The notes beneath the pieces are model-generated. The model saw only the letters and a list, made by a program, of their open reading frames with translations, was not told the origin of the DNA and made no database searches. From Oculina patagonica (Eukaryota): a stretch of DNA of 64,000 bases. This document shows positions 26,255-55,200 of the stretch, piece after piece. The position numbers and the translations under genes were made by a program. Numbering within the stretch: position 1 is the stretch's first letter; every line of letters begins with the position of its first letter. The stretch lies in the NCBI RefSeq assembly GCF_052425735.1, contig NC_135760.1, positions 29,388,001 through 29,452,000 of the forward strand, read 5' to 3'.

Positions 26255-27130
26255 CTGTATAGCAACCAACTGTTTGGCCATTTACGCAGATGATAAACAG
26301 AAGCATTTATTGTAACTAGGCAAGCAATCGAAATTTCACTGATATTTTTGATGTTGCCAGTAACATTTCGTTATATTAAGCTGCGCCTTTTGCTTTTATC
26401 ACACAGCAACGAACTATTTAATTACTTACGCAAGAAAATAAACAAAAAAACATTAACTGTAACTAAGCAATCAATCGAAATTTCAGTAATATTTTGTTGC
26501 TAACGTCAGTAACATTTCGTCACTTTTTAGGCTGCGCCCTTTACTTTGACCACATAGCAACCAACTATTTAATTACTTACGCAAGGAAATAAGCAAAAAA
26601 TATTAACCGTTACTAAGCAATCAGTCGAAACTTCTGAATGTTTTTTTATTGACGTCAGTAACTTCTCGTTACTTTGGGCTTCGCCTTTTGCTTAAACCCC
26701 TGGAAACCAACTATTTAATTACATAAAAGAAAAAACATTTACCGTCACCAGGTAATCTAACTGTAACTAAGCATCCAGTCGAATTAATTTTCAGAAATAT
26801 TTTGTTACTGACGTCAGTTACATTTCTTTTTTTAAGGCCGCGCTTTCTGCCTTTATCACATAGCAACGCAGTATTTACTTACTTACGCAAGAAAATAAAC
26901 AAAAAATATTTTCTGTAACTGAGCAGTCAGTCGAAATTTCAGCAATATTTTGTTGCTAACGTCAGTATCATTTCGTTACTTCAGGTTGCGCCTTTTGCCT
27001 TTACTACATAACAACGATTTCATTACTAAAGCAAGAAAATAAACGAAAAGCTTGTACTGTAATTAAGCAATCAGTCCAGATGCCAGTAACGTTTTGTTAC
27101 TGACGTCAATATTTTGTTACTTTGGGCCGT
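26255..27130. repeat. ~148-bp repeat array 3, ~6 units
   Basis: Repeated catagcaaccaactatttaattacttacgcaag / tgacgtcagt units. Confidence 0.9.
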
Positions 27131-29164: not shown

Positions 29165-29564
29165 TTTTCATATATTTGATATTCTCTGTTCAGTTTTGTC
29201 AAGAGTTTGTTAGTTCGTATGTGTCTTTATGTGCTCTTCATATGTTTTAGTTTGAACACAAGCACGTCATTTTCTTTCGTGAACGTCTCGCTTGTGACGT
29301 AAGATCTCAAACAACAACAACAACAACAACATTATTTTCCAAATATATATGTTTTTAGAACCTTTTCAGTTCAAACGTAAACAGTAGTTCAAACTTTCAC
29401 CCACGTACACATTTTATTGAATTCTCGGTGTTTTTTTTGCTGTGTAATTCTTTGCAGATCACATTTTTCTGATGTTTCTAACATTTCGTGGTGACGATGT
29501 TCATATATTTTTATATATTTTCGCTAATATTTTATGACGTGAGTCTTGTGTTTTCCTCTTAAAT

Positions 29565-29900
29565 CTTTACCGCAAAATAAACAGAAGCATTTATTGTATC
29601 TAGGCAAGCGATCGAAATTTTTCTGATGTTTTTGGTACTGACGTCAGTAACATTTCGTCACTTTTAATTTTAGGCTGCGCCCTTTACTTTGATCACATAG
29701 CAACCAACTATTTAATTACGTACGCAACAAAATAAACGAAAAATATTTTCTGTAACTAAGCAATTAGTCGAAACTTCTGAATGTTTTGTTATTGACGTCA
29801 GTAACTTCTCGTTACTTTGGTTTCGCCGTTCGCTTAAACCCCTGGAAACCAACTATTTAATTACAGAAAAGAAAAAAACATCTACCGTCACCAGGCAATC
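29565..29900. repeat. ~148-bp repeat array 4, ~2 units
   Basis: Same unit, with tgacgtca cores at ~29639 and ~29793. Confidence 0.85.
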
Positions 29901-30783
29901 AATCGTTTATTTAATCGCTCGATTTGCTAATTAATAATCGGTCGTATTTTTTTTTTACTCACTCACTGATCTATCCACCCACCCACCCACCCACCCGGAG
30001 TTTGTTCGTAGCACGAGTCAAGTTCGAGCCCGAGTCAGGTTCGAGTCACGAGTCAACTTCGAGTCAAGTTTTTTTTTGTTAATTTATGTTTTGGTCTTTT
30101 GGTTTTAATTGTGTTACATGCAAAATGTTGTACTAAAAAGACAGATGAGACGAAATGAAGACGAGACAGATGAAAATAAAGTGAACGCGTGGTACAATCG
30201 CTGAACTGGAGAACTGGGGACGACTCAGCCACAAATATTGTCAAACATTGTTTATTTCAAAAATCAGTTTCATTTGAAATTTTCCGCTTCCAATATAGGT
30301 CCAGATGAGAACCACTCTCGCTTCGAACATTATGTTTTCAAGACTGTTTTCTAGTAATTATATTGCACACGCATTGAGCAATTAGACCTCTGTGCGGAAA
30401 TCATCTGAATGTCAGACAGTAGAAAGTTATATTTAATATTTTTATTAGTTTGGAGTATTTCTATAATTATTCTAAAGTGTTATCTTTCACAAAAGGCAAA
30501 AACAACTAATATTTAGGTGTTTCCCTTACTGTAAGCTAAAAATGCTCGTGGAAAAAAAACCCATCAGTTTACTGGCAAAGAAACTAAAATCTCGCACTTT
30601 TTGAAGTAATTTGCCTCTTCAGAAATGACGTGTTTATTTGCATAACAATATTGAAAACCATTATGGCGGCGAAATATTGACTAGAGATTTCTGACTCGAC
30701 TTGCAACCCTCCTGATTTCTTATCTCTTTGCTTTCTTCGTCTGCTGCTGGATATAGTTAAGTTTCCTTTATAGTAACCATGTT

Positions 30784-31214
30784 TTAAGAACTCGCCAGCA
30801 TTCTCATGGCTTGGATTCGGATGCAAGCAAGAGATGAGAGACGACTGTCTGCAACAATCCTAGTCACGTGAGCTTCAAGATTATTACAATGTTCATCAAA
30901 GTTCATCCACAAACAGTCATCAGAAGCAAAGCCAGCTCGCGCTCTTGTGGAACGGTAATACGCCTGCACCAAATGTGACAATATCAACAGATACTGTTCG
31001 CATTTTTCAGCAGGGATATAATTGGTGGAGTGTCGACCTTTCCTTCCTAACACAGCCTGATATGATTCCTCGGACGGGCGGAGAGTTGTAACTTCGTTCT
31101 CCTTGTCACTCAACTGTAGTTCCATGGTTCGTAGAAACTCGTTCATTTCATTTTTTGCTGCTAAATCGATCGGTCTTTCTCCCCGGTCGTTTTTTGCTTC
31201 AAGTAGGGGTAAAC
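30784..31214 (-). CDS. SLF1: SLF1 terminal exon
   Basis: GLPLLEAKNDRGERPIDLA...RIQAMRMLASS*. Confidence 0.85.
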
Positions 31215-34200
31215 CTGTCAGAGATAAAAAACAGACAGAACAGTGTATAAAAACGTTGCAATACTTTTAAAACAAGTAGCACGAAGAAAAGTAGTGTGTG
31301 TATTTCCTCACACCGCAAAAGAATGTAAGCGACTGACCTCCTGCTCTGACCAGCAGCTCGACCACTTGTTGATGATTATTACCCACTGCATCATGTAAAG
31401 GTGTTGTTCCACACAGAGGAGCAGACAGTAAGTTCAACACCTCAGTCGTATCTGGCAACAAAACGATAAAAAAAAAACGTGAATTAGATGTTCGTTTGGC
31501 ATGTTAAATTTCATAAACCATTTGATATCAGTTTTGAGTGGAAGCTTTACAGATCTATGTCGAGACTCTTTTCTATTCCTCCATCAATGCTGATATGACT
31601 ATGGGGTTAATGAGGGTTAAGGGAAAAGTACGAACATGGAAGCATTTATTGTCGTGGAGTGTAGTGTCCCAACTAACCGTACCAAAGGATCGAAGTTGCT
31701 TTCTCAGCTTATCGCTCTGTAATTAAGCACTACTCTTCTTTAAAAAAACAGGCTACATGTGGTACTGTTTGTTTTTCGACACTGTGAAAAATATGGGCTC
31801 CCTTGGAGGTGAAGGAGTTTAAGTTAGTAGTACATACCATCTCCAGGTTTAATTTCATAGACAAGTTGCCTTGCCTTCAGCAGCTCCTGTACACAACCCA
31901 CGTATCCATGGTTACAGGCCTCGTGCAGTGCAGTCCATCCAGCATAGTCCTTCATGTTGGCGTCTGCACCTAACGCGAGCAGCTGTTTCACTTTAACTGT
32001 GTCATTCCTGATGCAACTTAACTGAAGATCAGTTTCGCCTGAGAGGGAATAACAAGGTTTACAAGACAACTTAAAAAAAAAGGTAAGATCATTACATTTC
32101 ATAAACAATAACGCCAGGTATCGTTTTGCTTTTTAAGTTATTCACCCATATCTACTTCTTAAAAGTACTAACACATCAAAAACGTATTTCTTTATATGAA
32201 TCCTTATAGGAGATTTACAATATGACTTTAGATTGAAAAAAAAAAAACCCGTAAAGGCTCTAGAAACCTTATCCGTTTCAATGCTTAGAAGATTTCTCAG
32301 TAGTGTTAAAATGACAATTATACTGCAATTCTTAGTGGATTGTTCGTGTTTGGTTTGTGGCTATTGAAGTAAGCTGCTGTTACATGGGAATCGGGTTCCA
32401 TCATCCTGACTCGGAAAGAAACAAATATTTAAGCATTCATTGGTATACCTTTCATATTTCGGCGATGGATCTGTTTTCTTAATTGGTTAGCATCCCTGAA
32501 AAACAAAAGTTGCAAACAAAATTGATAAGCGATAGAAAACTGATAAACCTGAAATAGTAACTGGACAACACATATTAGTATTAAAAAATTAACTGCCAAA
32601 GAGAATTTCGTGCGTGTTTACTTTTGTTAGGAGCGTGAAAACTCCTTGCGTTGTTTTCTCAGAACATATTTTCGGCTCTTCCTCGGTGTAAAACCTGTAA
32701 AACTAACCAATGACGTCAAACCAAGGTCGACCAAGACAACAAGAACCTCGAAACAATAAAGAGCAGGAAAACTATAGCTCTAAAACAAAAACAATTCACA
32801 GGTTTTTACACCGAGGTAAACCCATATTTTGGCTGATAGAGGGGCCTTCAAGGAGTTCATACACCTCTTAAGGAATTTCGAGCAATTTTCGTGCAATTTT
32901 CTTGAAATTCGGAGAACCCAAAACTGCTGAAACGATAACGGTTACGGCCATTCTTGTGCGTTAACTAATGACTTTTTCTCACAAGTTACAATATCAAGTA
33001 CACCCACACTCACCCACCTACTATTATTAGTACTTTTGTTCCTCAACTGAAATGAAGTACACAATTTTATTGGTATCGAATTGAATATCGTAAAACCTCG
33101 ACATACTTTTAGCGCAGTGCGTTTTCTTCCCCTCTCAGTTTTTTCTTCAGCATCATTTTGACGCGCTACAGACGGTTGGGCTGTTACCCTTTTGGCTTGC
33201 CGAGGTTTCAGCTTTTGGCCTTGCGGGTTTGTACATTGTGAGACTTGATGCTGTAGGTCCCTGTGGCAATGTACATCAGTTTGTTCCATTTGCTGGGGAA
33301 GAGCGACACGAACCAACTTGCGTCGTGGCCGTGACTGCCGGGTTTGTCGCTCATCAACTGGTGGCAAATGAGATGAATGCGTCTTGGAATTATTGAAGGA
33401 CGAAGGATTTTTATGGCCCTTCTTGAGCGGAGGTTTGAAAACATTCACATAACTCCATCATAGAGAGTGGTTTGGATTTTCGACTCATTTTTTTGGTACA
33501 ATTGATGTTCTCTGGTCAGTTATGTCAAGAGAGTAATAGTTGTAATGTGTTTTGGATGCTTCTTACAATCTTAGAACACAAACGCGTCATCTTCTTTAGT
33601 CAGAAGTTTCGTTTCTGACTAACTGAATAACATTGATGTAATGAATTTTTATTACCAGCGTCTTACTCACGCAAGAAAATAAACGAAAAATATTTACTGT
33701 AACTAAGCAATCGATTGAAATTTCAGAAACATTTTGTTACTGACGTCAGTAACATTTCGTTACTTTAGGCAGCGCCTTTTGCTTTTCCGCATAGCAACCA
33801 ACTATTTAATTACTTACGCAACAAAATAAACGGAAAACATTTACCGTTACTTAGCAATCAATTGAAATTTCTGTAATATTTTTAACTAACGTCAGTAACA
33901 TATCGTTAGTGTAGGTTTCGCTTTTCCCTGTAACCACATAGCAACCAACTATTTAATTACTTACGCAAGGAAATAAACAAATTTTTTTTACTGTAACTAG
34001 GCAATCAATTGAAATTTCTGTACTATTTTATAACTAACGTCAGTTACATCAGTTACGTTACTTTAAAAGGCGCGTTTACATGACAGAGAAAATTGGGTAC
34101 GGACCCGGACATGACCACTTTTGTAGAGAAACAGTCAATTCAAAACGGGTTCATAGGCGCCCTTTAGGCTACGCCTTTTGCTTTTCCCGCCTTGCAACTA

Positions 34201-37200
34201 ACTATTTAATTACTTACGCAAGAAATTAAACAAAAAAAAACATTAAACTGTATCTAAGCAGTCAGTCGACATTTCAGTAATATTTTGTTACTGACGTCTG
34301 CCGCACTTGTTGCTTTTCCCACATAGCAACCATTTATTTAATTACTTACGCAAGAAAATAAACAAAAAAAATTACTGTAACTAAGCAATCAGTCAAAATT
34401 TCATTAATATTTTGTTATTGACGTTTGTCAGTAACATTTCGTCACTTAAGGCCGCGCTTTTTTCTTTTCCCACATAGCAACCAATTATTTAATTACTTAC
34501 GAAAGAAAATAAACAAAAACATTCACTGTAACTAAGCAATCAGTCGAAATTTCAGTAATATTTTGTTCCTAACGTCAGTCAAGTAAGACTTTTTTACTTT
34601 AACGATTTTAGCTTTTACAAAAATATTTACTGTAACTACCTCATTATAGGAAAATAACGTTCCATGAAATTAACGAGAATTTTAAAAATTGTCGTTAATT
34701 TAAGTCGCGTTAATTTTTGTCAGCGTTAATTTCCTTGACATTAATTAGGTGAAGCGTTGATTTCCGCGACATTAATTTCCATCCTGTCCAGGCATAGTCG
34801 ACTTTCTCTTTTCTGCAAACTGTATTTACTTGTATTTCGATCTTTACGATATTTCCAGTTCATGCCTGCTTTCAGAAGGACAGTTGGACATCTAACACAT
34901 CCTCTTCCTATGTTTTCGGCAAAAAAGTTCAATGTTGAAATATAATTTGTTCTTATTGTCGCCAGAAACTGCGCTTCCTTGTGTTAATCGAGTTAATTAC
35001 TTCATTTTTAAAATTTACCTCCTCTTTCGCGTTAATTTCCTTTATTTAGAAGTACACTCTTTTTTTCTATAGGAATAATGTTTTTTTCTGGCCCAGGCTG
35101 AATATTCTTATTTTTCTGTCGATGTTAGGTTGAAAGTATTGTTATGAATATTCTTAGATTATAGCCTGTGTCATTTCTGTTTGTGCTATATACCATACAT
35201 ATGTATTACATATACCGTTCATCGAACTAGCATCGGAAGTAGTGAGGAAAGGACCGAATTAGCCGTTCCCATGGGCAGGAATTGGGCAGGAATAATTAAG
35301 TAGGTGACGTCATAGTGCGTAAGTGACGTCATCAAAAATGGGGCGTAAATGACGTCATAAAATGGGGTGCAATCTAAAAATAGAAAAATTACATCATCGG
35401 TTGTAATCTAAAAATAGAAAAATTACATCATCGGGTGTAATCTAAAAATTGAAAAATTACGTCATTAGGGTGTAATCTAAAAATAAAAATTACATCATAT
35501 CGGAGGGTAACCCCGCCTTGACCAATAGCCATAAAAGAAGCTGCTTGTAGTTCAGTCTATTCTCAGAGTTTACACCGTTCAGATCACAATGTACAGCAGT
35601 TATAATCAATTCTTTCAAGAGGGTTATGGAAATATCATATTACCCGATGACAGTGGAGATGAAAGCGATGATGAGAGCTCACAGGAAAGTGAACAGTCAT
35701 TTAGTCAAGATTCTCAATCGAGCGAAGAAATAGACTCTTCCCAAGAACAAATGGAGCATATAGATCCCTGGTCGCGCATTCAAGATGAAGTCACTAGTCG
35801 TCACGAAGCCAAGCTCGAAACTCTGATAAACGAGTATGAACAACATGGAGATGTGTCTGAAGTGGCCCGTGTTAAGGCTGAAAATGCTCTGCTACCAGTA
35901 TACAGGAAGGAGCTGAGAAAAGTTCTTTTGGAGTATTTACAGTGGATGCATGCAATGAAGAAAGATTCGACCTTCCGTAAAGTGATAGAGACCAAAAATG
36001 AATTGAAAGATACAGAGGGATATGATTGGTTAGAATCGACAGAACTCGCTATCGATAAGCGAAAATTCTTACTCAATCGGTTGTTTGTCAAACAAACTGT
36101 TCCCGAACACTAAGTGAACTGTGCCTGTTAATCTTTTCTGGTGACACCTCTGTCAATGTTTTTAATAATCAATAAACGTATTTTAAAAGAGAAAAAACCT
36201 GTTTGTTCCTTCTTGTGTCTCGCGGTGCGCAACTTGTCTATATAAACGCCTATAGATGCTAATTTCTTAAGCAAACTCCACCAAGTTTATACCGTAATTC
36301 GCTTAAATGCTCATACGCGTTCTCTACCGTTTGAATTAAGATAAAACCAAACATGTGAAACATAGGTTTACAAGTCAAAAAAGTTGTACATTGATCAAAT
36401 TTTTTTCACAAAATCGGTTCACTGAGCTGGTCTTACAATTTATTTTACTCGTAACTGCTCAATAACTCCATATTGCCAATGTAGTATTGCCGTATTGGCC
36501 GCTACGAATTTTTTGCTGTTTGTAATAATTGCTATTTGATTTTCTTGGTTGCTCTTTGTCACTCAACTGGTTAAATGATTTATTGATCTTATGAACTTAA
36601 CGTAATAAGAAATTTTGAAATGGAAAACTTTTAGAAAGTTTTGACAGTAAGAAAGTTTACTTTAAAGAAATGTAAATGAACTGTTGACAGGTTTGAGTGT
36701 GAATTTTTCGCTCCGATAATAACCCTTGGGAAAAGCATGTTAGTAATGCCTTTGTGTTAAGCGAAACCCCTAATTCTGGAAAAGTTTAATGAATTTTTAT
36801 GAAGTAAATAATAAGAGTTTTTTAAAGGAAATAAACTGAAGAAAATCACTTAATTTCCTCTTTTAATACACTGTTATTTATACAATAGCCGTTGACATTA
36901 CATTCTTTTAAACAAAGATTGCAAAAACAGACTTAAACCTATATGTCCGTGTCATCCAACAGCAAATGTTTATGCAAAAACATTACAGAGAAAGCCACCG
37001 TGGATGTTGAAGTGTTGTTATTTTAGACCGTTTGCTAGTCTTGTCTGTTTTTCGAATGCTTTTACTTCTGTTTTTCAATAAATCCTTTGATTTTCTTGGT
37101 GTGGATAACTGGTAGTTAATGTCAATGCCTTGTTGTTGAATAGACGGAGGTATGGTACACGCTTTAAGTTTTTGGCTGTTCTCAGTGTTTTGATAGATGA

Positions 37201-40200
37201 TTACTTTAACTTTAGGTTGTAGTTTTGCTTCTTGTAGCCACTTTCTTCTTTGATTGTGATCCAGCTGATGAACATTAGTAAGATGGTTAGATAATTTCAC
37301 GAGATATTTTGCTCCACATCCCGGAACCGGACAGTCTCGGCAAACTCTTCTAACCATGTTAACGGCATGAAATATTGACGCAAATGAGAGAGTTTTGTTA
37401 ATATCCTTGTGTTATATAGACGCTACTGAAGGTCAAAAAGGACAAAATGAGGTCAAAAAGGACAAAATAAGGACAACAAGGACAAAACAAGGACTAAAAG
37501 GACAAAAGGAGACACGAGGGACATTTAAGCTATATGTTTCGCTGCAAACGCGCGTGGAGAACGCGCGTGGAGAGACGCGTGCATGACATTCAATAAAAGT
37601 TTTTTTTCTTATCTACGTAACTGATCACTGATAAAAAACCAAAATAATTAATAATTTAATGATAAAGGAAATCTCAAATTCCCGTTTAATGTATATTCCC
37701 AGGAAAGATAGCAATATGTCTACTGTTCTTGTTTTTCTTTCGCTCATATTAGCGTATTCCAACGCCTGCTTAGAGGGAAAATGTCGGTGCTATGAAGCGT
37801 TGGAGCTTATCGACTGTTCTCACATTGGTCTGTATTCGATGCCACATGCAAAGTCTATCATGGTAAACTACACTTCAATTTTACTGCGTGGTAACAATCT
37901 TCGAAACCTCAATCTAACCGCTATTTTGGAAGTGTTCCCGCGACTTGTACTTCTTGATTTGAGAGAAAACAATAAGCTATTATGCGATGATTTACAACAA
38001 TTCCACAACTTTAAGCCGATTATTATAATAACAAAGGCGCTCTAGGCAATTACTACAGCATGTGGAGATGGAATTGACAATGTTAAGCACTGATCATGAT
38101 GAGGAGATCATTTTCTCTCGCACAACGGAGATGTGGATCACTCTTGGAGCTTATGCAATCACACACAAATGTAATTAACGAAATCGTATTTCAATAAACA
38201 ATGAAACGGAAACAACAGTCTCTGTCATGTTTGTGTTCCAGAAACAAAACCGAACAAAACCTTTATCTGTGAACTACATATTCACATCTCCGTTGTGCGA
38301 GAGATGTGAATATGTAGTTCACAGATAAAGGTTTTGTTCGGTTTTGTTTCTGGAACACAAACATGACAGAGACTGTTGTTTCCGTTTCATTGTTTATTGA
38401 AATACGATTTCGTTAATTACATTTGTGTGTGATTGCATAAGCTCCAAGAGTGATCCACATCTCCGTTGTGCGAGAGAAAATGATCTCCTCATCATGATCA
38501 GTGCTTAACATTGTCAATTCCATCTCCACATGCTGTAGTAATTGCCTAGAGCGCCTTTGTTATTATAATAATCGGCTTAAAGTTGTGGAATTGTTGTAAA
38601 TCATCGCATAATAGCTTATTGTTTTCTCTCAAATCAAGAAGTACAAGTCGCGGGAACACTTCCAAAATAGCGGTTAGATTGAGGTTTCGAAGATTGTTAC
38701 CACGCAGTAAAATTGAAGTGTAGTTTACCATGATAGACTTTGCATGTGGCATCGAATACAGACCAATGTGAGAACAGTCGATAAGCTCCAACGCTTCATA
38801 GCACCGACATTTTCCCTCTAAGCAGGCGTTGGAATACGCTAATATGAGCGAAAGAAAAACAAGAACAGTAGACATATTGCTATCTTTCCTGGGAATATAC
38901 ATTAAACGGGAATTTGAGATTTCCTTTATCATTAAATTATTAATTATTTTGGTTTTTTATCAGTGATCAGTTACGTAGATAAGAAAAAAACTTTTATTGA
39001 ATGTCATGCACGCGCTCTCTCCACGCGCGTTCTCCACGCGCGTTTGCAGCGAAACATATAGCTTAAATGTCCCTCGTGTCTCCTTTTGTCCTTTTAGTCC
39101 TTGTTTTGTCCTTGTTGTCCTTATTTTGTCCTTTTTGACCTCATTTTGTCCTTTTTGACCTTCAGTAGCGTCTATATAACACAAGGATATTAACAAAACT
39201 CTCTCATTTGCGTCAATATTTCATGCCGTTAACATGGTTAGAAGAGTTTGCCGAGACTGTCCGGTTCCGGGATGTGGAGCAAAATATCTCGTGAAATTAT
39301 CTAACCATCTTACTAATGTTCATCAGCTGGATCACAATCAAAGAAGAAAGTGGCTACAAGAAGCAAAACTACAACCTAAAGTTAAAGTAATCATCTATCA
39401 AAACACTGAGAACAGCCAAAAACTTAAAGCGTGTACCATACCTCCGTCTATTCAACAACAAGGCATTGACATTAACTACCAGTTATCCACACCAAGAAAA
39501 TCAAAGGATTTATTGAAAAACAGAAGTAAAAGCATTCGAAAAACAGACAAGACTAGCAAACGGTCTAAAATAACAACACTTCAACATCCACGGTGGCTTT
39601 CTCTGTAATGTTTTTGCATAAACATTTGCTGTTGGATGACACGGACATATAGGTTTAAGTCTGTTTTTGCAATCTTTGTTTAAAAGAATGTAATGTCAAC
39701 GGCTATTGTATAAATAACAGTGTATTAAAAGAGGAAATTAAGTGATTTTCTTCAGTTTATTTCCTTTAAAAAACTCTTATTATTTACTTCATAAAAATTC
39801 ATTAAACTTTTCCAGAATTAGGGGTTTCGCTTAACACAAAGGCATTACTAACATGCTTTTCCCAAGGGTTATTATCGGAGCGAAAAATTCACACTCAAAC
39901 CTGTCAACAGTTCATTTACATTTCTTTAAAGTAAACTTTCTTACTGTCAAAACTTTCTAAAAGTTTTCCATTTCAAAATTTCTTATTACGTTAAGTTCAT
40001 AAGATCAATAAATCATTTAACCAGTTGAGTGACAAAGAGCAACCAAGAAAATCAAATAGCAATTATTACAAACAGCAAAAAATTCGTAGCGGCCAATACG
40101 GCAATACTACATTGGCAATATGGAGTTATTGAGCAGTTACGAGTAAAATAAATTGTAAGACCAGCTCAGTGAACCGATTTTGTGAAAAAAATTTGATCAA

Positions 40201-43200
40201 TGTACAACTTTTTTGACTTGTAAACCTATGTTTCACATGTTTGGTTTTATCTTAATTCAAACGGTAGAGAACGCGTATGAGCATTTAAGCGAATTACGGT
40301 ATAAACTTGGTGGAGTTTGCTTAAGAAATTAGCATCTATAGGCGTTTATATAGACAAGTTGCGCACCGCGAGACACAAGAAGGAACAAACAGGTTTTTTC
40401 TCTTTTAAAATACGTTTATTGATTATTAAAAACATTGACAGAGGTGTCACCAGAAAAGATTAACAGGCACAGTTCACTTAGTGTTCGGGAACAGTTTGTT
40501 TGACAAACAACCGATTGAGTAAGAATTTTCGCTTATCGATAGCGAGTTCTGTCGATTCTAACCAATCATATCCCTCTGTATCTTTCAATTCATTTTTGGT
40601 CTCTATCACTTTACGGAAGGTCGAATCTTTCTTCATTGCATGCATCCACTGTAAATACTCCAAAAGAACTTTTCTCAGCTCCTTCCTGTATACTGGTAGC
40701 AGAGCATTTTCAGCCTTAACACGGGCCACTTCAGACACATCTCCATGTTGTTCATACTCGTTTATCAGAGTTTCGAGCTTGGCTTCGTGACGACTAGTGA
40801 CTTCATCTTGAATGCGCGACCAGGGATCTATATGCTCCATTTGTTCTTGGGAAGAGTCTATTTCTTCGCTCGATTGAGAATCTTGACTAAATGACTGTTC
40901 ACTTTCCTGTGAGCTCTCATCATCGCTTTCATCTCCACTGTCATCGGGTAATATGATATTTCCATAACCCTCTTGAAAGAATTGATTATAACTGCTGTAC
41001 ATTGTGATCTGAACGGTGTAAACTCTGAGAATAGACTGAACTACAAGCAGCTTCTTTTATGGCTATTGGTCAAGGCGGGGTTACCCTCCGATATGATGTA
41101 ATTTTTATTTTTAGATTACACCCTAATGACGTAATTTTTCAATTTTTAGATTACACCCGATGATGTAATTTTTCTATTTTTAGATTACAACCGATGATGT
41201 AATTTTTCTATTTTTAGATTGCACCCCATTTTATGACGTCATTTACGCCCCATTTTTGATGACGTCACTTACGCACTATGACGTCACCTACTTAATTATT
41301 CCTGCCCAATTCCTGCCCATGGGAACGGCTAATTCGGTCCTTTCCTCACTACTATCGGACATTTGGCTCATGCAGGTTTTTATCGTTTTATTGGCTAGTT
41401 TTGCCGTTTAGAGAAAGGACGAATTTTATACGATCTAGATAAAACATATAATTTTATTGTATTTACATATTTTCAACACACAAAATTATATTCCTTTCCA
41501 ATCTCAGCCTCGGGTTTATTCTTAAAATATTCTTAAAATTTCGCAAAGAAAAAAAAAGGTGCAGGTTTGCCTCCAATTCGCGTTAATTTAATAAGGAAAG
41601 CAATCAACAGCAAACACTAAAAATTATGGCAAATAACACTAAACACTAAACCCCATTCAGACTCTCACATTACTATGGCCTTGCAGAAATGCTATGCCGT
41701 CATGAACAAAAAACATCAATATATTACATCCATTTACACAAAAATAGCGATAAACGATGATAATAACTGCAGACTATGGTAGGGTATCACTCATCATGAA
41801 GGAAAAAACTACCCTGACTTGTCACTGACCACAATGGCAAGTGTTGAACTTGCCGTGAATGTGCCACAGTAAAGTGTATCAAATTTATTTTGAAGACCGC
41901 GAGTTTTCTTCTGATCATTACTTAATTCTTATTTCTACAATAAAATATTGCTGATACCAAATCAAGTTTTCAAAACTAGGAGGCACCCAAAAAATTAACA
42001 TTTTTCCACTCTCTAACTTACAAATGAAATATTTCAATTTACCAGAACACTTTTTTAATGAATTTGCCAACCCTACTTACAATACTAAAACGGAATGCAA
42101 TTTATTACAACACACTTCTTATTATACTTACCCAGCTACTTGTACTACAATACAGCTACCTTACTCCAATTACAATACTTATCATCGCTACTTACATCAT
42201 TTACAACACAATTACACAATTACATCTACAGTCACTTCCACTTCCGTACAATTTCGTTCCGTGCTGCGGATAATAATATAATTAACGCAGGATGAAATAG
42301 CTCACATTACATTTTATATGACTAAATTTAAATACTTTGTTTTAAAGAATAATTATTTGGCTACTCAGAGGAGTTACATAAAAAAACTTTGTAAACTCTC
42401 TGTATATTTTTCCTTTTAAGATTGTGGCTGTCTTCATGATTTTTTTATTTCTTTCTTTTGATGTTTTGAATTTACCAAAACACGCACAACTTTGCTACGG
42501 CCTAATAAGGCTCGTAAGCCTAATTGTTTAGTTAATTTTTATATATAAAATTTATGTATATTTTTGTACATTTTCCGATTACGATACCCAACTGAACTAG
42601 CTATGTTTTTTAGTAATGTCTCATTAGAATCGTTTCCTCAGAACACGGATGAACGTTAGGTGTTGTTGAGCTGGGTCTGTCTGGATACACAGTCCTATTC
42701 TTCTATCAGTACACTGTGGCAGCTCACTGGTGTCTTGCTGGAAAGCAAGACGGCGCTCTGGCATTACTTGATTCATAGCTCCAACTCGTCTGCTTCTGGG
42801 TTTCATTTGATCATCTCTCGCCTTCTGCTGCTGATTGGTAGCGTTTTGATGCTTTTCTGTGCTCGGTTTGTTGTCGCGTGGTTCATTTTGTTTTGACACT
42901 GTTAGTTGTTTGAGGTGTCTGCCACTTGTTCCACTCTTCACTGTGGTTTTTCTTCGTCTTGTTCCAGGATCTGCCAACGCATGGGGTGCTAAGCACTGCC
43001 TGTGAATCATACTGCCATCTTTCAACGCAATCCGTCCTCCACTTCTCTCGGTTTTCTCTTCAACATGGTTTGGACGCGCTACGGACTGTTTCGTTGTTAC
43101 CCTTTTGGCTTGCTGAGGTTTTCGTTGTTGGCCTTGCGGGTTTGTACATTGTGAGACTTGACGCTGTGTAGCTCTGTGGCAGTGGACATCAGTTTGTTTC

Positions 43201-46200
43201 ATCTTCTGGGGAAGAGCAACACGAACTAACTTGCTTGGTGACCGTGACTGCCGGGTTTGTCGTTCATTAACTGGTGGCAAATGCGTTGAATGCGATTTGG
43301 AATTACTGAAAGACGAAGGATTTTTATAGCCCTTCTTGAACGGAGGATTGGAGGCAACTTTCGGTGGTTCTTGCTCTTCAACAAGAAAGCGTCCATTTCT
43401 TCTTTGGTAAACTTCACACGACTCTCTCGTCGACAGTGGTTTGGATTTTCGACTCATTTTTGGGGTACGTTTGTTGTTGTACAATTGATGTTCTCTGTTC
43501 AGTTCTGTCAAGAGATTGTTAGTTCTAATGTGTTTTTCGTGGTTCCTATATATTCTCATTTGAACACAAGCACGTCACCTTCTTTGGTGTACGTGTCGCT
43601 TCTGACGTAACATCGCTCTCAATTGCACCATTATTCGCTAGTCTTTTTCGACGTGAGTCTTGTGTTTTCCTCGGTTACCGCATGGCAGCCAACTGTTTAG
43701 CAATTTACGCAAAAATAAACAGAAGCATTTCTTGTAACTAGGCAAGCGACCGAAATTTCACTAATATGTTTTTATACTGACGTCAGAAACATTTCGTTAC
43801 TTAAGGCGGCGCCTTTTACTTTTACCACATAGCAACCAAATATTTAATAACTTACGCAAGAAAATATACGAAAAATATTTACCGTTACTAAGCAATCAAT
43901 CAAAACGTCAGTTATGTTTTGTTATTGACGTCAGTAACTTCTCGTTACTTTGGCTTCGCCTTTTGCTTAAACCCCTGGAAACCAACTATTTAATTTCATA
44001 AAAGAAAAAACATTTACCGTCACCAGGTAACTGATCAATCCTTTAATTGTTCGCTCGATCTGGTTATTAATAAACGGTCGTCTTTTTATTTATTCACTCA
44101 CTGATCCATCCAACCACCCACCCGCCCGTCCGTCGACCTTTCGTTGATTGGATGGTTTGGATGGTTCGTATGTCCTCGTTCGTTCGTTCGTACGTTCGGT
44201 CGGTCGGTCTTTGGTTCTTTGCTTCGTCGGTCGGTCGGTCGGTTGGTTGGTTGGTTCGGTCGGTCGGTCGTTCTTTGCTTCGTTGGTTGGTTCGTTCTTT
44301 TTTGCGTTCGTCGATGGAGCTAGCCAGTCAGTAGTCATTCAGAGGATCAGTCCATCACTGTGTACTTACCCAATGATCTGCAGTGGTGTCCCTTTACGCC
44401 GCGTGTTTTTTACAGCAGCCGCTTTAACAACAGTGTCTTCAGTGATACTTGTTGTGGTGGCCGCAGGCAACAAAAAGAAATAGCTGGAAACCTTAGAAAT
44501 AAAAACAATGTGTAACCTTTTATACGGGTAAAGCGCGTTCATTGATTAAGGTTTTGCTGCAGAACATGCTTCAATGTTTGGGCGTAAAAAACAAACACAA
44601 CGACAAACAAATGGCAAAGAAACAACACCATACACAATACACACACAAACAGCAAAACTATGTTTTTATCATTACTGTTGCAAAGTAAGATTCTGGTTCC
44701 TTCCTCTCGCACAGGATCAATGTGGCCTCCCGATACACGAATTCAGTCTTATGAGTGAAAAAGGATAAAGGTACTACAGTATCTACACTGCAACTGCTCC
44801 CCTTGACCTCCCCTTGTACGTTGATGGAAAGTGTAACAGAAGCTACTGTTGAATAACTGACTGACTGATTGAAAAATCTGTGCTTCTTTATCTGTACGCA
44901 CTTCTACATGTAATCTATATTCAAATTGTTTATGGATGACGCCCATATTTAATTGTTTTGCCAACATTTTTCAAGTTAGCCGTTCGCAATTTGTTTCAAT
45001 ATTCCTCATTAATTGTGACTTAAGAGGTAACACTTCAAGTAGATAATAAAGATTTTACTAAATCTTACTATTTTCTCAAGTGATAAAGCCTTAGAGTTTA
45101 CATGACGTCTCTCCAGAGGCACCAATCGATCAACGTAGTTAGCCAGGAGCATGTCAGTAACATGCATTCGAAGCCACGTGGGACTACACGTCTCCAAAAA
45201 CCGCTTTAGTGTAACCTCGCTTTCATGGAGCCGGCCACAGGCCAGATACAGTTCGGTCACAAAGGTTCGCGAGCGTTCACTCAACCTGGTGGCCAGATCT
45301 TCTTCGGTACACTTCATGGAAACGAGGTCACAAAGAATGAAGCATTTAGCTGCCATAGCAACAACACTTTGAAGAGTTTGCAAGGCGGTAATCTGAAGAA
45401 ACAAAAGTATCAACTTTAGATGCATTTTCCCGGGTGAAACCTGGGTCAACCTTCTTGCCTTGTTATGGTTTAGGAACGTACACACCGACATATTATATTC
45501 GCGATAAAATGTTTACGCCAACTGCGAGCTTCGGCCAATTTACTTGGTGAAGCTTCTGAACGCCATTCGGGATTCGTTTATATTTTTGTATACAAAATTT
45601 TTACAAAGAAATCACTGATATCACACACCTAGAGCAGGAAGTTTGGCAAGCTGACACGGATTTTATTTCACAATTGCAAACATTTTGGGAAAAAGTAAGA
45701 AGATTGCCATTATTTGTCAGACTTCCACGCATTGTACAGTCCCCTATGCGGCTGTTATTAGGGTCGGGGAGGACAGTTGGGTTGGGTCGGGGAGAAGCGT
45801 TCAGTGAAGACCCAAATTACGGCTTGAGGAACCCTAGCCGTGATTGAAAATGGAATGATTTTGGCTTCTGATAGGTCGGAGATCAAAAGATGGGGCGTGA
45901 AGAGGAAAATCTCGTCAGATCTTTTGTAAATAAAACTAAATCTAGATAAAGTTTGGTTGCATACATATGTTCAAACTATAATTTAAGAATTTTTTAACTT
46001 AACATTACATACTATACCGTATTCAGACCATCTACACACAGATAAGCAATCCATCTTAACGACAAGCTCTCACGGCTTTGCTTTCTTTCCGATTAATGAG
46101 CACATCGGACATTTGGCTCATGCAGGTTTTTATCGTTTTATTGGCTAGTTTTGCCGTTTAGAGAAAGGAGAATTTTATCGATCTAGATAAAACATATAAT

Positions 46201-49200
46201 TTTATTGTATTTCATATTTTCAACACACAAAATTATATTCCTTTCCAATCTCAGCCTCGGTTTATTCTTAAAATATTCTTAAAATTTCGCAAAGAAAAAA
46301 AAAGGTGCAGGTTTGCCTCCAATTCGCGTTAATTTAATAAGGAAAGCAATCAACAGCAAACACTAAAAATTATGGCAAATAACACTAAACACTAAACCCC
46401 ATTCAGACTCTCACATTACTATGGCCTTGCAGAAATGCTATGCCGTCATGAACAAAAAACATCAATATATTACATCCATTTACACAAAAATAGCGATAAA
46501 CGATGATAATAACTGCAGACTATGGTAGGGTATCACTCATCATGAAGGAAAAAACTACCCTGACTTGTCACTGACCACAATGGAAGTGTTGAACTTGCCG
46601 TGAATGTGCCACAGTAAAGTGTATCAAATTTATTTTGAAGACCGCGAGTTTTTTCTGATCATTACTTAATTCTTATTTCTACAATAAAATATTGCTGATA
46701 CCAAATCAAGTTTTCAAAACTAGGAGGCACCCAAAAAATTAACATTTTTCCACTCTCTAACTACAAATGAAATTTTCAATTACCAGAACACTTTTTTAAT
46801 GAATTTGCCAACCCTACTTACAATACTAAAACGGAATGCAATTTATTACAACACACTTCTTATTATACTTACCCAGCTACTTGTACTACAATACAGCTAC
46901 CTTACTCCAATTACAATACTTATCATCGCTACTTACATCATTTACAACACAATTACACAATTACATCTACAGTCACTTCCACTTCCGTACAATTTCGTTC
47001 CTGCTCGGATAATAATATAATTAACGCAGGATGAAATAGCTCACATTCATTTTTGATAAATTTAAATACTTTTTTTAAGAATAATTTTCTACTCAGAGGA
47101 GTTACATAAAAAAATTTAAACTCTCTTTTTTTCCTTTTAAGATTTGGCTTCTTCATGTTTTTTTTTTCTTTCTTTTATTTTAATTTACCAAAACACGCAC
47201 AACTTTGCTACGGCCTAATAAGGCTCGTAAGCCTAATTTTTAGTTAATTTTTATATATAAAATTTATTATTTTTTTACATTTTCCGATTACGATACCCAA
47301 CTGAACTAGCTATTTTTTAGTAATGTCTCATTAGAATCGTTTCCTAGAACACGGATGAACGTTAGGTGTTGTTGAGCTGGGTCTTCTGGATACACAGTCT
47401 ATCTCTATAGTACACTTGGCAGCTCACTGGTTCTTGCTGGAAAGCAAGACGGCGCTCTGGCATTACTTGATTCATAGCTCCAACTCGTCTGCTTCTGGGT
47501 TTCATTTGATCATCTCTCGCCTTCTCTGCTGATTGGTAGCTTGATGCTTTTCTTCTCGGTTTTTGTCGCGTGGTTCATTTTGTTTTGACACTGTTAGTTG
47601 TTTGAGGTGTCTGCCACTTGTTCCACTCTTCACTGTGGTTTTTCTTCGTCTTGTTCCAGGATCTGCCAACGCATGGGGTGCTACACTGCCTGTGAATCAA
47701 CTGCCATCTTCCGCAATCCGTCCTCCACTTCTCTCGGTTTTCTCTTCAACATGGTTTGGACGCGCTACGGACTTTTCGTTGTTACCCTTTTGGCTTGCTG
47801 AGGTTTTCGTTGTTGGCCTTGCGGGTTTGTACATGTGAGACTTGACGCTGTGTAGCTCTGTGGAGTGACATCAGTTTTTTCATCTTCTGGGGAAGAGCAA
47901 CAGAACTAACTTGGTGACCGTGACTGCCGGGTTTGTCGTTCATTAACTGGTGGCAAATGCGTTGAATGCGATTTGAATTACTGAAAGACGAAGGATTTTA
48001 TAGCCCTTCTTGAACGGAGGATTGGAGGCAACTTTCGGTGGTTCTTGCTCTTCAACAAGAAAGCGTCCATTTCTTCTTTGTAAACTTCACACGACTCTCT
48101 CGTCGAAGTGGTTTGATTCGACTATTTTTGGGGTCGTTTTTTTGTACAATTGATGTTCTCTTTCAGTTCTGTCAAGAGATTGTTATTCTAATTGTTTTTC
48201 GTGTTCCTATATATTCTCATTTGAACACAAGCACGTCACCTTCTTTGGTGTACGTGTCGCTCTGACGTAACATCGCTCTCAATTGCACCATTATTCGCTA
48301 GTCTTTTTCGACGTGAGTCTTGTGTTTTCCTCGGTTACCGCATGGCAGCCAACTGTTTAGCAATTTACGCAAAAATAAACAGAAGCATTTCTTGTAACTA
48401 GGCAAGCGACCGAAATTTCACTAATATGTTTTTATACTGACGTCAGAAACATTTCGTTACTTAAGGCGGCGCCTTTTACTTTTACCACATAGCAACCAAA
48501 TATTTAATAACTTACGCAAGAAAATATACGAAAAATATTTACCGTTACTAACAATCAATCAAAACGTCAGTTATGTTTTGTTATTGACGTCAGTAACTTC
48601 TCGTTACTTTGGCTTCGCCTTTTGCTTAAACCCCTGGAAACCAACTATTTAATTTCATAAAAAGAAAAAACATTTACCGTCACCAGGTAACTGATCAATC
48701 CTTTAATTGTTCGCTCGATCTGGTTATTAATAAACGGTCGTCTTTTTATTTATTCACTCACTGATCCATCCAACCACCCACCCGCCCGTCCGTCGACCTT
48801 TCGTTGATTGGATGGTTTGGATGTTCGTATGTCCTCGTTCGTTCGTTCGTACGTTCGGTCGGTCGGTCTTTGTTCTTTGCTTCGTCGGTCGGTCGGTCGG
48901 TTGGTTGGTTGGTTCGGTCGGTCGTCGTTCTTGCTTCGTTGGTTGGTTCGTTCTTTTTTGCGTTCGTCGATGGAGCTAGCCAGTCAGTAGTCATCAGAGG
49001 ATCAGTCCATCACTGTGTACTACCCAATGATCTGCAGTGGTGTCCCTTTACGCCGCGTGTTTTTTACAGCAGCCGCTTTAACAACAGTGTCTTCAGTGAT
49101 ACTTGTTGTGGTGGCCGCAGGCAACAAAAAGAAATAGCTGGAAACCTTAGAAATAAAAACAATGTGTAACCTTTTATACGGGTAAAGCGCGTTCATTGAT

Positions 49201-52200
49201 TAAGGTTTTGCTGCAGAACATGCTTCAATGTTTGGGCGTAAAAAACAAACACAACGACAAACAAATGGCAAAGAAACAACACCATACACAATACACACAC
49301 AAACAGCAAAACTATGTTTTTATCATTACTGTTGCAAAGTAAGATTCTGGTTCCTTCCTCTCGCACAGGATCAATGTGGCCTCCCGATACACGAATTCAG
49401 TCTTATGAGTGAAAAAGGATAAAGGTACTACAGTATCTACACTGCAACTGCTCCCCTTGACCTCCCCTTGTACGTTGATGGAAAGTGTAACAGAAGCTAC
49501 TGTTGAATAACTGACTGACTGATTGAAAAATCTGTGCTTCTTTATCTGTACGCACTTCTACATGTAATCTATATTCAAATTGTTTATGGATGACGCCCAT
49601 ATTTAATTTTTTGCCAACATTTTTCAAGTTAGCCGTTCGCAATTTGTTTCAATATTCCTCATTAATTGTGACTTAAGAGGTAACACTTCAAGTAGATAAT
49701 AAAGATTTTACTAAATCTTACTATTTTCTCAAGTGATAAAGCCTTAGAGTTTACATGACGTCTCTCCAGAGGCACCAATCGATCAACGTAGTTAGCCAGG
49801 AGCATGTCAGTAACATGCATTCGAAGCCACGTGGGACTACACGTCTCCAAAAACCGCTTTAGTGTAACCTCGCTTTCATGGAGCCGGCCACAGGCCAGAT
49901 ACAGTTCGGTCACAAAGGTTCGCGAGCGTTCACTCAACCTGGTGGCCAGATCTTCTTCGGTACACTTCATGGAAACGAGGTCACAAAGAATGAAGCATTT
50001 AGCTGCCATAGCAACAACACTTTGAAGAGTTTGCAAGGCGGTAATCTGAAGAAACAAAAGTATCAACTTTAGATGCATTTTCCCGGGTGAAACCTGGGTC
50101 AACCTTCTTGCCTTGTTATGGTTTAGGAACGTACACACCGACATATTATATTCGCGATAAAATGTTTACGCCAACTGCGAGCTTCGGCCAATTTACTTGT
50201 GAAGCTCGACGCCATCGGGATCGTTTTTTTTTATACAAAATTTTTACAAAGAAATCACTGATATCCACACCTAGAGCAGGAAGTTTGGCAAGCTGACACG
50301 GATTTTATTCACAATTGCAAACATTTTGGGAAAAAGTAAGAAGATTGCCATTATTTGTCAGACTTCCACGCATTGTACAGTCCCCTATGCAGCTGTTATT
50401 AGGGTCGGGGAGGACAGTTGGGTTGGGTCGGGGAGAAGCGTTCAGTGAAGACCCAAATTACGGCTTGAGGAACCCTAGCCGTGATTGAAAATGGAATGAT
50501 TTTGCTGATAGGTCGGAGATCAAAAGATGGGGCGTGAAGAGGAAAATCTCGTCAGATCTTTTGTAAATAAAACTAAATCTAGATAAAGTTTGGTTGCATA
50601 CATATGTTCAAACTATAATTTAAGAATTTTTTAACTTAACATTACATACTATACCGTATTCAGACCATCTACACACAGATAAGCAATCCATCTTAACGAC
50701 AAGCTCTCACGGCTTTGCTTTCTTTCCGATTAATGAGCACTTGTCAGGGGCGGATCCAGGATTTTTCAAAGGGGGGTGGCTGTTTACCAAGATTTTTTTT
50801 ACTATCTTTTTAAGCTCCAGGTTTTTTATGGGGGTGGGGGATGGGGTATCAGGCTTTTAGACAGGTTTTTGAAAGTGGGAAATCGAAATTATTTCGGGCC
50901 TGAGACCCATGTTTCATGGGGCCGTAGGCTCCTTTCCCTAGTGGGGTATGGGGGCATGCCCCCTCAGAAAATCTTGAAAAATTGAAGCCTGTAAGACGTA
51001 TTTCCCATCTGAGCAGCTTTAAACAACTTTCAATTAAGTTATTAAACCGTTATTTGGCAAAATTATTCTTTCCTCAACTTACCTTGAATTATAATTTGGG
51101 ACAGAAACTCTAGTTCTTATGAAAGTGATTGAAATTTGAAGTTGACAAGCCACGAACTTACACGAAAGAACAGATATGCGTTGTTTTGCTCCCCCACGTG
51201 CGTGGAAATTTTAAGCTCTTGGCAAAGTGGCCAAGGGAATTTTGGTAAGTGAGTTTTTAGAACAGCGGTTTTGCTTGCGAAGAAAACGGTAAGAAAACCG
51301 CGTAAAAGATTAATATGAAGAAGAAAATCATGCCAGCAAGGCTAAAACAACTCTTGAAAGGTAAAATGTTTTAAAATTATACACAAATGTTTTGTTACAT
51401 TAAACACAGAAGTTCGTAAAACAGGCTGTCGAAAATCTCCTATGTTGGAAAAGTGGCCGTCCTTAACTTTGAACAGCCGCCTGGCTAAGGAAGGTGGATG
51501 TTAACAAATATGTCAAATTTACTTTAGCTAAAAATATTACCCAGTAACACTTTTTTCACCTTACCCAGTGTCATTGTCCTTATTTTCTATTTTAATGTGT
51601 TTATTTTCATTTTTCTGGTGGATCAAGGGGGGTGGCTAGCCACCCAATCCACCCCCCTGGATCCGCCCCTGCTTGTTACTCACCTGAGATGGATCGTCGC
51701 GTGATGAACAAGCCGCGCTCCAAGTGACCCTGAACAGCTCACGCAGTCGAGTGTTAAAGGAGATTGATGAAGGTCCCGGCCAAAACATTCGCCACAGCAG
51801 TGAATTTTTCAGGCAATTTAATTTTTCTCTAGGAGTGGTTGAAACGCTGTAAAAATAGTGAAAAATTATAAAAGGCTAACAACGGTTGGCATGCAACGAT
51901 TTCGGCATTATTTCATGTAAGAGGTTCATAAAACTATTAATATTGTTGCGCGCGTATTTCTAAGCTTGGCACCGATTTTAAAACAGCTTTTGCCTTCTAG
52001 TTCTTATTACCTTAAGGTTACTATTGTTAGCGGCTACTAATTTTAGCGATTTTAGCGAGTTGGGCAAAAATCGCCAAATTTAGTGCTCGCTAAAATTTGT
52101 TTCGGTCAACTTTAATACTTGCTCAATTTAAATACACCCCTCCCACCCCAAAGGGAAACAAAATTAAGCATAGTCGACTTAAAAAATTCTTTTAAAAATA

Positions 52201-55200
52201 GACGCCGGTAACTTTGTTCTTTCTGTAAATGCAAATGTTCGCTCAATTTCAAGTGAGTTTGTTCGTTTCTGAACATTTATTTCCATCTTAGCTATATGTT
52301 CATTAAAAACTGGTTTACACGATATCACTAACTTTTTAATTTTTTCGGAAAATCGCTAAATTAAATAGTCGCTAAATCTTGCTCTAAAAAAATCGCTAAA
52401 ATTAGTAACCTTAAGGTAGTTCACAGTTAGGATGATCCAGGGTTCGCAATTTATGCTCGCAAACTCGCAAAATGAAATGAAATGTTTTTCCGAGTTTGCG
52501 AGCAAAAAAGGAATCCACTAGGAAACATTTGTGGTGAAACATTCGCCATAATCTACTTGCCGCAATCGTTTCTTTTATTTCGTTTCATTCTGTGTTTCCT
52601 TTAGTTTTTTTTAATATTTGTATACAGTAGAACCCCGGTAACTCGAACTCTGAAGCGAAACGAAAAACCGTTCGAGTTAGCGGGGTTGTTCGAGTTATCC
52701 GAGTTCGAGTTACCGGGGTTCTACTGTAGTTTTCTCTTTCTGTTTGATTTTGTTACAGCTCCAATACCTAACTCTAGACATATAAACCGGTAATTCAAGA
52801 TTGCATAAACCGGTAGTACAAGATTGCGCAAAGGAATTAGCCCGCTTTGCGGGATTACGACACTTTTACCTCCCACTCTACTCTAGTTGCTTTACAACAT
52901 CTCGCGATCTTTAAAAAGCAATATATTTATCAATTTATTTAAAAAAAAACTAGTCTTTATTATTTTCACGAAGCTTTGGCTACTGTAAAGAAATTAAGCT
53001 ACTAAGTGGCATACCAACTACTTGTACATTCGTAGAAATCCTGCTCCAGTAAGGTGGTTACAAACCGAAGTACAAGCAGGCTGTTCTCATCTTTGTTACT
53101 GAAAATAAACGAGAAATGTTTTAGACATCATAAAATTATAGACATCATCAGGGGTCCATGTAGAATTGCCGCACACAAGCAAAAATTATTCTTATACTGA
53201 GATAACCACAAGTGTTTTAGCCGTTCTGTGTAACACTGGTTAGAGTACTGTATATCGGAAGTTGACGAATTTCCAGTCCAAAAGGGAGTTTATAATTTGA
53301 AACTGGAAAATGATGTTTGGAAGACAGTCCTAGGAGAGTGTTTTAACATGATCATAGTAATGTATTGCCACTAAAAGATCCTAGGAAAACACAAGCTATT
53401 GTTGCAAAAGGAAACTTCCAGTTGTACTTGCTAATTGGGGACTTTTACCTGCAGATTGTTTTCATAAAGTCCCAACTGTCTCCCTCTTCTGACAAACCAC
53501 CGTCCCCCGTATACAATCCGAGCGCGGCCTGGTACAGAGAAGGGTTCTCAGATGGTTTGTGTAGGACAAGAAGACGCTGAAGTAACACGAAAGCTTTGAT
53601 GGCCTGGGCACGAGACGGAGATTTCTGAAACACAAAGAATGAAAGGGTAAAGACATTGTCCGTTGACCAGCTGTTATTTCAAGCCCTGGACTAGAATGCT
53701 GTCCGAGGGATCACTGCGGCCTGAAAATGTTGAAACAAGACGCTTAAAGCTTAATGCTTAAAACCGAGCGGTTAATGTTTAACTACCTCATTAGGCAAGT
53801 ACAGCAAAAACTTTTAAAATACCATTTAATTTATATCGAGTAACACGCAAGTCTGTGGATTGTTTGTCCATGCTTGGACAAATTCCTGCTTAGGCTTTCA
53901 AATATTTATTTTTTTCTGAATACTGAATAACCTAGGTATTGAAAACGTTTTGTGTGCAATCTTGAATAAATGAACTCGAACCAGTTAAATGGCAGTACAA
54001 ATGATCTCCGAACAAAACAAACAAACAATTAGAAAGATTTCGATAAAAACTAAGAAGCGTTTTTAAACATTTTTAAAAATGCATCACACCAAAAAAATGG
54101 GAATAAGAACAAGATAAGAAAGCTTTTTAGCTTTCAAACATGCAAGCTCTTCACGTCAATTTTGGGAAGCAGTCACGCAAACGCGAGTTCTTGATTGCGT
54201 GGTTCATTGCAGGTCATTTCTCCATCGCCGTTCGGTTCCGACTGAAACTCAAAAACCTTGAATGAAAAACAAAAAAATATATATTTCATATCTCTCGCTT
54301 AAAAGAGCGGAGTAACCAGAAAATTACAGTATTGGCTCCTGCTCGAATAAAACAAGTCACATAAATAATAAAAAAAACGAATAAAACGAGTCAAATATCA
54401 AGAATAACAGAAAAACTTCTAAACAAAATTACAAAAGAAAATAAAAAGACTAAAAAAGATCACACGTATTAGATAACAGATGCTGTTAAAAATCCCAACT
54501 AAATGTGAAAAAAAGATTCAAGATGAGGCAAAGAAACATTTGAATTGCATTAAAAAATTTTGAATCATTAAAAGCTGTGAAAATAGCATGCCGTGTAAAA
54601 TTTAATTAATTATACGCGCCAAAGGGCAAGTTTTCATTTTTGCCGTCTATTATTTCACATGATGACTTTACCGATTTAAATTCCATTCTAGTTTGAAGAA
54701 ATTATTTTATTATTACTTTGCATTTTCATTTTGTTTTCTGAGTTCTTGAAAAGTGTGCAAGTAAAGTTTTTACATCAAGAACATAATAAGGTTCTTTTGT
54801 TGTGTAAACATTCAATTCGTCTGTGACACACGGCTTTGTCGGCCCAACTGTACACGGATGGAAGTGGACAAAATGGACACAATTCTTGCTAAATGAAAAA
54901 CATTTTAAAAGTAGAGTCTGGCCCAAAAATGCTTTGGCTACCAGCCGTTTTTAAATGCAGGAGCTTGCTGCAAAAACATTGCGTGACTGATGTAAAAAAG
55001 CTTCGACCTGTCGAAACAATCTCCAGTACTCGCTTGAGTCGAACGCTTGAATAAAAACACAAAAATGTATTTTTCACGTTGAACAGAAATCGGGTTATTA
55101 GATAAAATTTTAATTTCTCCTGCTGAATAAATATCAAAAGTGCGGGATTTGAATCCTGGCCAAGAAAGTGGCCGAGTGAACTACTACGACAAATAACGCA

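Follow-up and report, generated by a model that had tools for sequence, protein, structure and literature searches.

A palindromic element in an intron of an SLF1-like gene

We examined a 64,000-nt window of the genome of the coral Oculina patagonica (NC_135760.1, positions 29,388,001–29,452,000; all coordinates below are numbered within this window), in which a 6.1-kb palindrome with the ends of a Polinton, a virus-derived DNA transposon, lies inside a gene resembling the DNA-repair gene SLF1. The exons of this gene, mapped by tblastn with the SLF1-like protein of Pocillopora, run along the minus strand from 62158 to 30787 (Table 1). The end of exon 12 is at 44369, and the following exon 13, which is small and in phase, occupies 32495–32449 as read by eye from the tblastn alignment. 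The two exons bracket the palindrome, which therefore lies wholly inside intron 12, in agreement with the initial annotation of this locus. The intron number is valid only if the stretch at 46104–50740, in which exons 11–12 are repeated, is an artefact.

When the two arms of the palindrome were aligned, no substitution was found over 3052 aligned bases and the only difference was one 1-bp indel, confirming that the near-perfect stem of about 3 kb that had been annotated is present. The element is bordered by a 6-bp target-site duplication (TSD), and the probability of identical 6-mer flanks arising by chance is approximately 0.0003. Each arm carries three short open reading frames (ORFs; 124–174 aa) and nothing else that is recognizable as a gene: polymerase, integrase, capsid, protease, and ATPase genes are all missing from the palindrome. 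None of the three cargo ORFs matched a Pfam or PHROGs family at the cut-off, and an Atlas search with the 174-aa protein gave no usable match. This protein has many relatives (507 of the 547 candidates). The 128-aa protein has a region like leucine-rich repeats (LRRs); its relatives are longer, and one of them, with 178 aa, weakly matches SLITRK1 (E-value 0.0016). The named relatives of the cargo and host proteins are from stony corals. Relatives of the 174-aa protein are also encoded at 17 metagenome loci, none of which showed a long palindrome, although the contigs there are 1.5–6.1 kb in length and a palindrome could collapse in them.

Table 1. Coordinates of the palindrome, its parts, and the host gene in the 64,000-nt window
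Feature	Position	Strand	Remarks
Palindromic non-autonomous Polinton derivative	35238..41353	.	6116 bp as assembled; ends AGTAGT...ACTACT
Left arm	35238..38290	+	3053 bp
Right arm	38301..41353	-	reverse complement of left arm, one 1-bp indel
Left TSD copy, ATCGGA	35232..35237	+	6 bp
Right TSD copy, ATCGGA	41354..41359	+	6 bp
174-aa cargo ORF	35589..36113	+	mirror copy 40478-41002, minus
124-aa zinc-finger-like ORF	36983..37357	-	mirror copy 39234-39608, plus
128-aa ORF, leader-like start and LRR-like region	37659..38045	+	mirror copy 38546-38932, minus
Centre of palindrome	38116..38476	.	22-bp inverted repeat, ~38116-38137 / 38283-38304, around ~146-bp spacer
Deletion-rich second copy of 41354-46103	46104..50740	.	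begins exactly at right TSD
SLF1-like host gene	30787..62158	-	15 exons with tandem copy disregarded; ankyrin exons downstream of element
Intron 12 of SLF1-like gene, containing the palindrome	32496..44368	-	tblastn

Relationship to coding Polintons

The termini of Polintons read AG...CT. These elements have a TSD of 6 bp and long terminal inverted repeats (PMC3014272), and both of these features of an autonomous Polinton are present in the palindrome, without the core genes. The first 230–260 bp of its left arm are 91–93% identical to the ends of two Polintons of about 14 kb in the same genome. One of these, 14.25 kb in length, encodes an rve-chromo integrase, an A32 ATPase, a protease-like ORF, a look-alike of the double jelly-roll capsid protein (the Pfam family was found on 14–30% of the cluster members), and, read by eye, motifs of a B-family polymerase; neither its right end nor a TSD could be located. 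The other, of 14.5 kb, has a TSD and is approximately 95% identical to the first over most of its length, with its ORFs split. Capsid, protease, and ATPase genes are present in the 14-kb element L043/L044. Apart from the ends, the palindrome arm and the 14-kb elements have a zinc-finger homologue in common: the 124-aa ORF is 55–60% identical, over 47–56 aa, to the ORF directly preceding the ATPase gene in the 14-kb Polintons.

Larger relatives that retain only part of the core genes also occur. L086/L028, L088/L035, and L025/L026 are partial Polintons of 10.8–12.2 kb with long arms, which retain either the polymerase or the ATPase–capsid block, as if these were complementary modules. The polymerase-bearing partial element of 10.8 kb has a TSD, and the 12.2-kb element carries ATPase and capsid-like ORFs together with 3.1-kb arms.

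A dispersed family of non-autonomous elements

At least 57 matches to the arm were found in the genome, with 40 of the 135 candidates scored. A 24-nt subterminal motif gave 58 matches at 31 loci, whereas the reversed control gave none. Both ends could be resolved at 20 of these 31 loci, and the other 11 may include larger or broken elements. Thirteen of the resolved elements were 4.3–6.2 kb in length, two were 1.1–1.2 kb, and one each was 3.5, 7.5, 14.25, 14.5, and 38.4 kb; a 6-bp TSD was present at 19 of the 20 (18 perfect and 1 with one mismatch). Five copies are near-complete palindromes, namely the 35238–41353 copy, L021, L022, L023, and L027, with unique centres of up to ~390 bp, and other family copies have arms of 0.6–1.8 kb. 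Ends common to a coding element and dispersed copies with TSDs are the features of a non-autonomous Polinton derivative, and both were found here. Judged from these sequences, the palindrome is a member of a multi-locus, non-autonomous, Polinton-type family and not a one-off. Because it has both ends and a TSD, and because the family includes four more near-complete palindromes, it most likely reached this site already in palindromic form, as a mobile element.

Two further arrangements of the ends were observed. Nested AGTAGT ends lie within the terminal repeats at L071:797-6084 and at L088:6374 / L035:7195, with the new end outside the old one on both sides. At L049 (C1594):6743-6945, an element of ~190 bp with matching flanks consists of only two ends, identical to the first 76–120 bp of the 35238–41353 copy.

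Origin of the palindrome

The differences among the near-complete palindromes are mostly present in both arms at once. Relative to the 35238–41353 copy, L021 has 12 substitutions in both arms and 2 in one arm, L022 has 101 and 3, and L023 has 89 and 6. L021 is 99% identical to the 35238–41353 copy, yet its outermost ~55 bp differ at each of the two ends, and L027 likewise differs at both. Furthermore, L023 and L027, which lie on different contigs, agree in their inner breakpoints and in a centre that is 99% identical, yet their arms are different, and L046 and L051 have an arm boundary in common. The shared substitutions, the paired end variants, and the recurring breakpoints, together with the drift of the arms in older copies, indicate that the arms become identical close to the time of insertion and that the junctions travel between loci.

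If each palindrome had instead formed in the chromosome after insertion, by template switching or by repair from the other end, and separately at each locus, identical arms with an intact TSD would be expected as well, and the presence of four different centres among the five near-complete palindromes would be accommodated. However, such a process would not readily give the same inner breakpoints at unlinked loci (L023 and L027; L046 and L051) or end variants that arise at both ends together. The arms of older copies have diverged (92% identity in L037 and 89% in L048), and conversion in place is therefore weak as an explanation. We consider separate formation at each locus improbable.

A possible site for the origin of the fold is visible in the non-palindromic relatives L064/L071 and L065/L039, in which the ~146-bp spacer is bordered by a 9/10-bp inverted match. 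This match is a plausible fold-back site, although one so short can occur by chance. L064 was considered as a full-length parent and rejected, being itself another 5.3-kb element; a reading of the centre as a separate miniature inverted-repeat transposable element was likewise rejected, because relatives have just one of the two 22-bp repeats.

As in a snap-back genome, the palindrome is formed of one genome end. We regard it as likely that the palindrome is a defective but integration-competent snap-back derivative of a Polinton, copied in trans and placed in intron 12 of SLF1 by a trans-acting integrase; it has the ends of a Polinton and a TSD of 6 bp. Protein-primed synthesis would begin at one Polinton end. 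The new strand would then fold at a short inverted repeat and be copied as far as that end, so that a linear palindrome results, both of whose ends are functional. In every subsequent round, replication through the stem, or panhandle, would equalise the arms, including end variants gained in the meantime. Given the TSDs and the absence of an integrase gene, insertion would have relied on an integrase supplied in trans, likely from a full-size Polinton.

Several points weigh against this reading. The match to the 14-kb elements covers the ends only, and no homologue of the 174-aa or LRR-like protein was found in them. The centres of the 35238–41353 palindrome and of L021 may be mis-assembled, and polishing might mask a few differences between the arms. 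The fold-back and panhandle steps lean on the stem-intermediate model of Polintons and on models of adenovirus replication, and no free, episomal molecule was seen. Finally, for any single locus, formation in place followed by transposition may have occurred.

Reliability of the assembled sequence

The stretch at 46104–50740 differs from 41354–46103 by 90 deletions, 1 insertion, and 2 substitutions, and is probably an artefact of assembly from noisy reads. A real tandem duplication of SLF1 exons 11–12 was rejected in view of the 90 deletions against 2 substitutions. The stretch nevertheless duplicates these exons and would mislead gene models.

The centre of the palindrome is also affected. 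The assembly displays the ~146-bp spacer twice, around a 10-nt loop (38291–38300), and its exact form is uncertain. A 175-nt contig from read run X1, which is possibly not independent of the assembly, matches 38138–38304 exactly, with 8 extra letters unplaced, at a depth of 106 compared with 47 in the flank. This contig starts at a predicted branch, yet runs through three branch points predicted by the assembled copies, including the hairpin branch. Its length appears to fit a path from the spacer into the second arm, with two arms around one ~146-bp spacer, better than it fits the 10-nt loop, although contig simplification is an alternative cause of the disagreement. There is about an even chance that the 10-nt loop is an artefact; the arms and the TSD are unaffected by this, and the long stem persists whichever centre is right. 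Among the read contigs listed for the left flank and left arm, none crosses the insertion junction.

A noisy-read signature that directly adjoins the element, together with an X1 contig that conflicts with the assembled centre, could indicate that the whole palindrome is an artefact of assembly or library preparation. However, the flanks differ and still share the 6-bp TSD, an arrangement that would not result from a fold-back chimera. The same design also recurs at many loci, and the other copies have differences private to one arm. The conflict with X1 may also be limited to the 10-nt loop, without involvement of the arms. An artefactual origin of the entire palindrome is therefore very improbable.

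Possible consequences for SLF1 and for silencing

A stem of ~3 kb could form in any SLF1 transcript that crosses intron 12, and this geometric part of the initial annotation holds. The proposal built on it was that the allele resembles Mu killer of maize, in that hairpin RNA from SLF1 read-through would yield small RNAs that silence autonomous Polintons in trans. The palindrome is an inverted duplication under a host promoter, as in a Mu-killer-type locus; it is wholly intronic, its arms are near-perfect, and endo-small interfering RNAs (endo-siRNAs) and Piwi-interacting RNAs (piRNAs) are reported from another cnidarian, Nematostella (PMC6211395). Between 46 and 141 perfect 21-mers (of 3033) are common to the arm and each stretch of the 14-kb elements that includes an end, and 265–292 arm 21-mers match the zinc-finger region of the polymerase-bearing elements L028, L035, and L036.

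However, the hairpin contains no core-gene sequence, unlike Mu killer (PMC3440606), and the 21-mer matches to the 14-kb elements are confined to bases 34–209 of the arm. The view of the locus as a special silencer allele is thus not supported. Most 21-mer matches fall on the sibling mini-elements (1469–2543 of 3033), and with four further near-complete palindromes in a multi-locus family the allele would not be a unique source of hairpin RNA. Six AATAAA signals on the SLF1 strand precede the axis of the palindrome, and SLF1 transcripts may therefore end ahead of the second arm. The observed-to-expected CpG ratio is 0.97 in the arm and 1.13 in the rest of intron 12; the lack of depletion gives no sign of long-term methylation, although a young copy would show none in any case. 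Overall, a Mu-killer-like function is improbable. An endo-siRNA or piRNA route is possible in view of the cnidarian pathways described in PMC6211395. The distribution of the matches suggests that small RNAs, if made, would mostly target the siblings; among helpers they would at best reach the end promoter. Thus, the palindrome resembles a defective passenger more closely than a dedicated silencer, and any hairpin in the SLF1 pre-mRNA would be incidental to the site at which this young copy was inserted.

SLF1 itself might be the gene mainly affected, through early polyadenylation or disturbed splicing of exons 12 and 13 with loss of the ankyrin exons, an effect that is compatible with a snap-back origin. 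On the SLF1 strand, two of the AATAAA signals (40420 and 38398) immediately follow ORFs of the element, and the ankyrin exons are located downstream of the palindrome. However, AATAAA is not enriched in the element, where 8 occur in 6.1 kb, relative to the remainder of the intron, where 11 occur in 5.8 kb, and the splice sites of intron 12 lie 2.7–3 kb away from the palindrome. A main effect on SLF1 is rather unlikely. For SLF1, the insertion is a candidate functional allele. Separately, a repeat family with 70–87% identity and ORFs of up to 311 aa (17682–19078, 24691–27220, 27908–29992, 32945–34579, and 42465–44127) sits inside and downstream of SLF1, and a public gene model fuses the repeat to SLF1 exons.

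A possible size class of small elements

Of 22 small elements measured, 18 were 4.3–6.2 kb in length, and groups with only 0–40% of their inner sequence in common overlapped in size. The A32 ATPase is the only core gene in two sibling types, with 445 aa in L046 and 464–470 aa in L078 and L081; the latter two elements are 7.5 and 3.5 kb in length. A zinc-finger-fused A32 packaging ATPase was observed as the sole core gene in L046, L051, L055, L057, and L059 and, as the second type, in L078 and L081. The viral_contigs set contained no relative of the 445-aa ATPase or of the 174-aa protein, a result that does not argue against the existence of such relatives.

The apparent convergence of unrelated architectures near 5.3 kb and the ATPase-only siblings hint at a satellite size class. 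Tentatively, these elements may be inherited Polinton satellites of ~5.3 kb, about one-third of the helper length, with a size set by packaging or replication and with end and arm modules swapped through fold-back; we hold this as a speculative possibility. The 10-kb fetches bias the measurements towards small elements, the length of L050 includes an inserted retroelement-like fragment, and the size of L021 is uncertain, all of which count against a true size class. The apparent size convergence and the ATPase-only siblings raise a satellite hypothesis that can be tested. If it were true, the class would comprise ATPase-only forms as well as full palindromes such as the 35238–41353 copy. The elements would then represent defective-interfering genomes, integrated in the host, of a DNA virus of animals, with an inbuilt capacity for hairpin RNA that does not depend on any particular host gene.

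Other features of the window

At 11872–13347, a 1.5-kb element with inverted ends of ~366 bp that are 99% identical is probably a non-autonomous DNA transposon. Exons resembling a SWAP/SURP-domain splicing factor were recognized by eye on the plus strand at ~6900–10200. The observed-to-expected CpG ratio is 0.21 at 5000–8200, a depletion unlike the values in SLF1 intron 12.

Comparison with known systems

The replication of Polintons is mostly known as a model. Palindromic and long-armed derivatives, with arms that change jointly and junctions that recur, would preserve traces in the genome of replication by fold-back and through a panhandle. Surveys that need hallmark genes and long loops would overlook such elements; a coral survey demanded both (PMC11131425), and the terms “palindrom” and “non-autonomous” are absent from its main text. 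Polintons, their remnants, and adintoviruses are described in PMC6431247, PMC11414722, and PMC8502044, and the palindromic form does not appear in the sections consulted. Within the literature covered, which took in few subscription papers or Repbase entries, we found no account of palindromic non-autonomous Polintons.

The palindrome resembles Polintons/Mavericks (adintoviruses) in its 6-bp TSD, its long terminal inverted repeats, and the ends that it shares with the core-gene-bearing 14-kb elements, and differs from them in lacking any core gene, in that the inverted repeat makes up nearly the whole element, and in its size of ~5–6 kb. Mu killer, which contains an inverted part of a transposase gene and silences in trans (PMC3440606), likewise places inverted-duplicated transposon sequence under a host promoter, whereas the coral palindrome, known from DNA alone, has only ends and accessory genes, and has siblings elsewhere.

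The phage satellites P4 and the phage-inducible chromosomal islands, including the Staphylococcus aureus pathogenicity islands (PICI/SaPI), form a smaller genome size class. The coral mini-elements may be comparable, being about one-third of the helper size, and some siblings retain only the packaging ATPase; the 35238–41353 copy differs in having no ATPase.

Defective adenovirus DNA forms comparable snap-back palindromes or panhandles. In snapback genomes of adeno-associated virus and in other defective viral DNA, one end is copied back to give a palindrome or panhandle that depends on a helper (PMC13506859, PMC8235507). The coral palindrome would share with these defective viral genomes one end copied back onto itself, and differs from them in that the elements of its family lie between TSDs in the host genome at many loci and are inherited.

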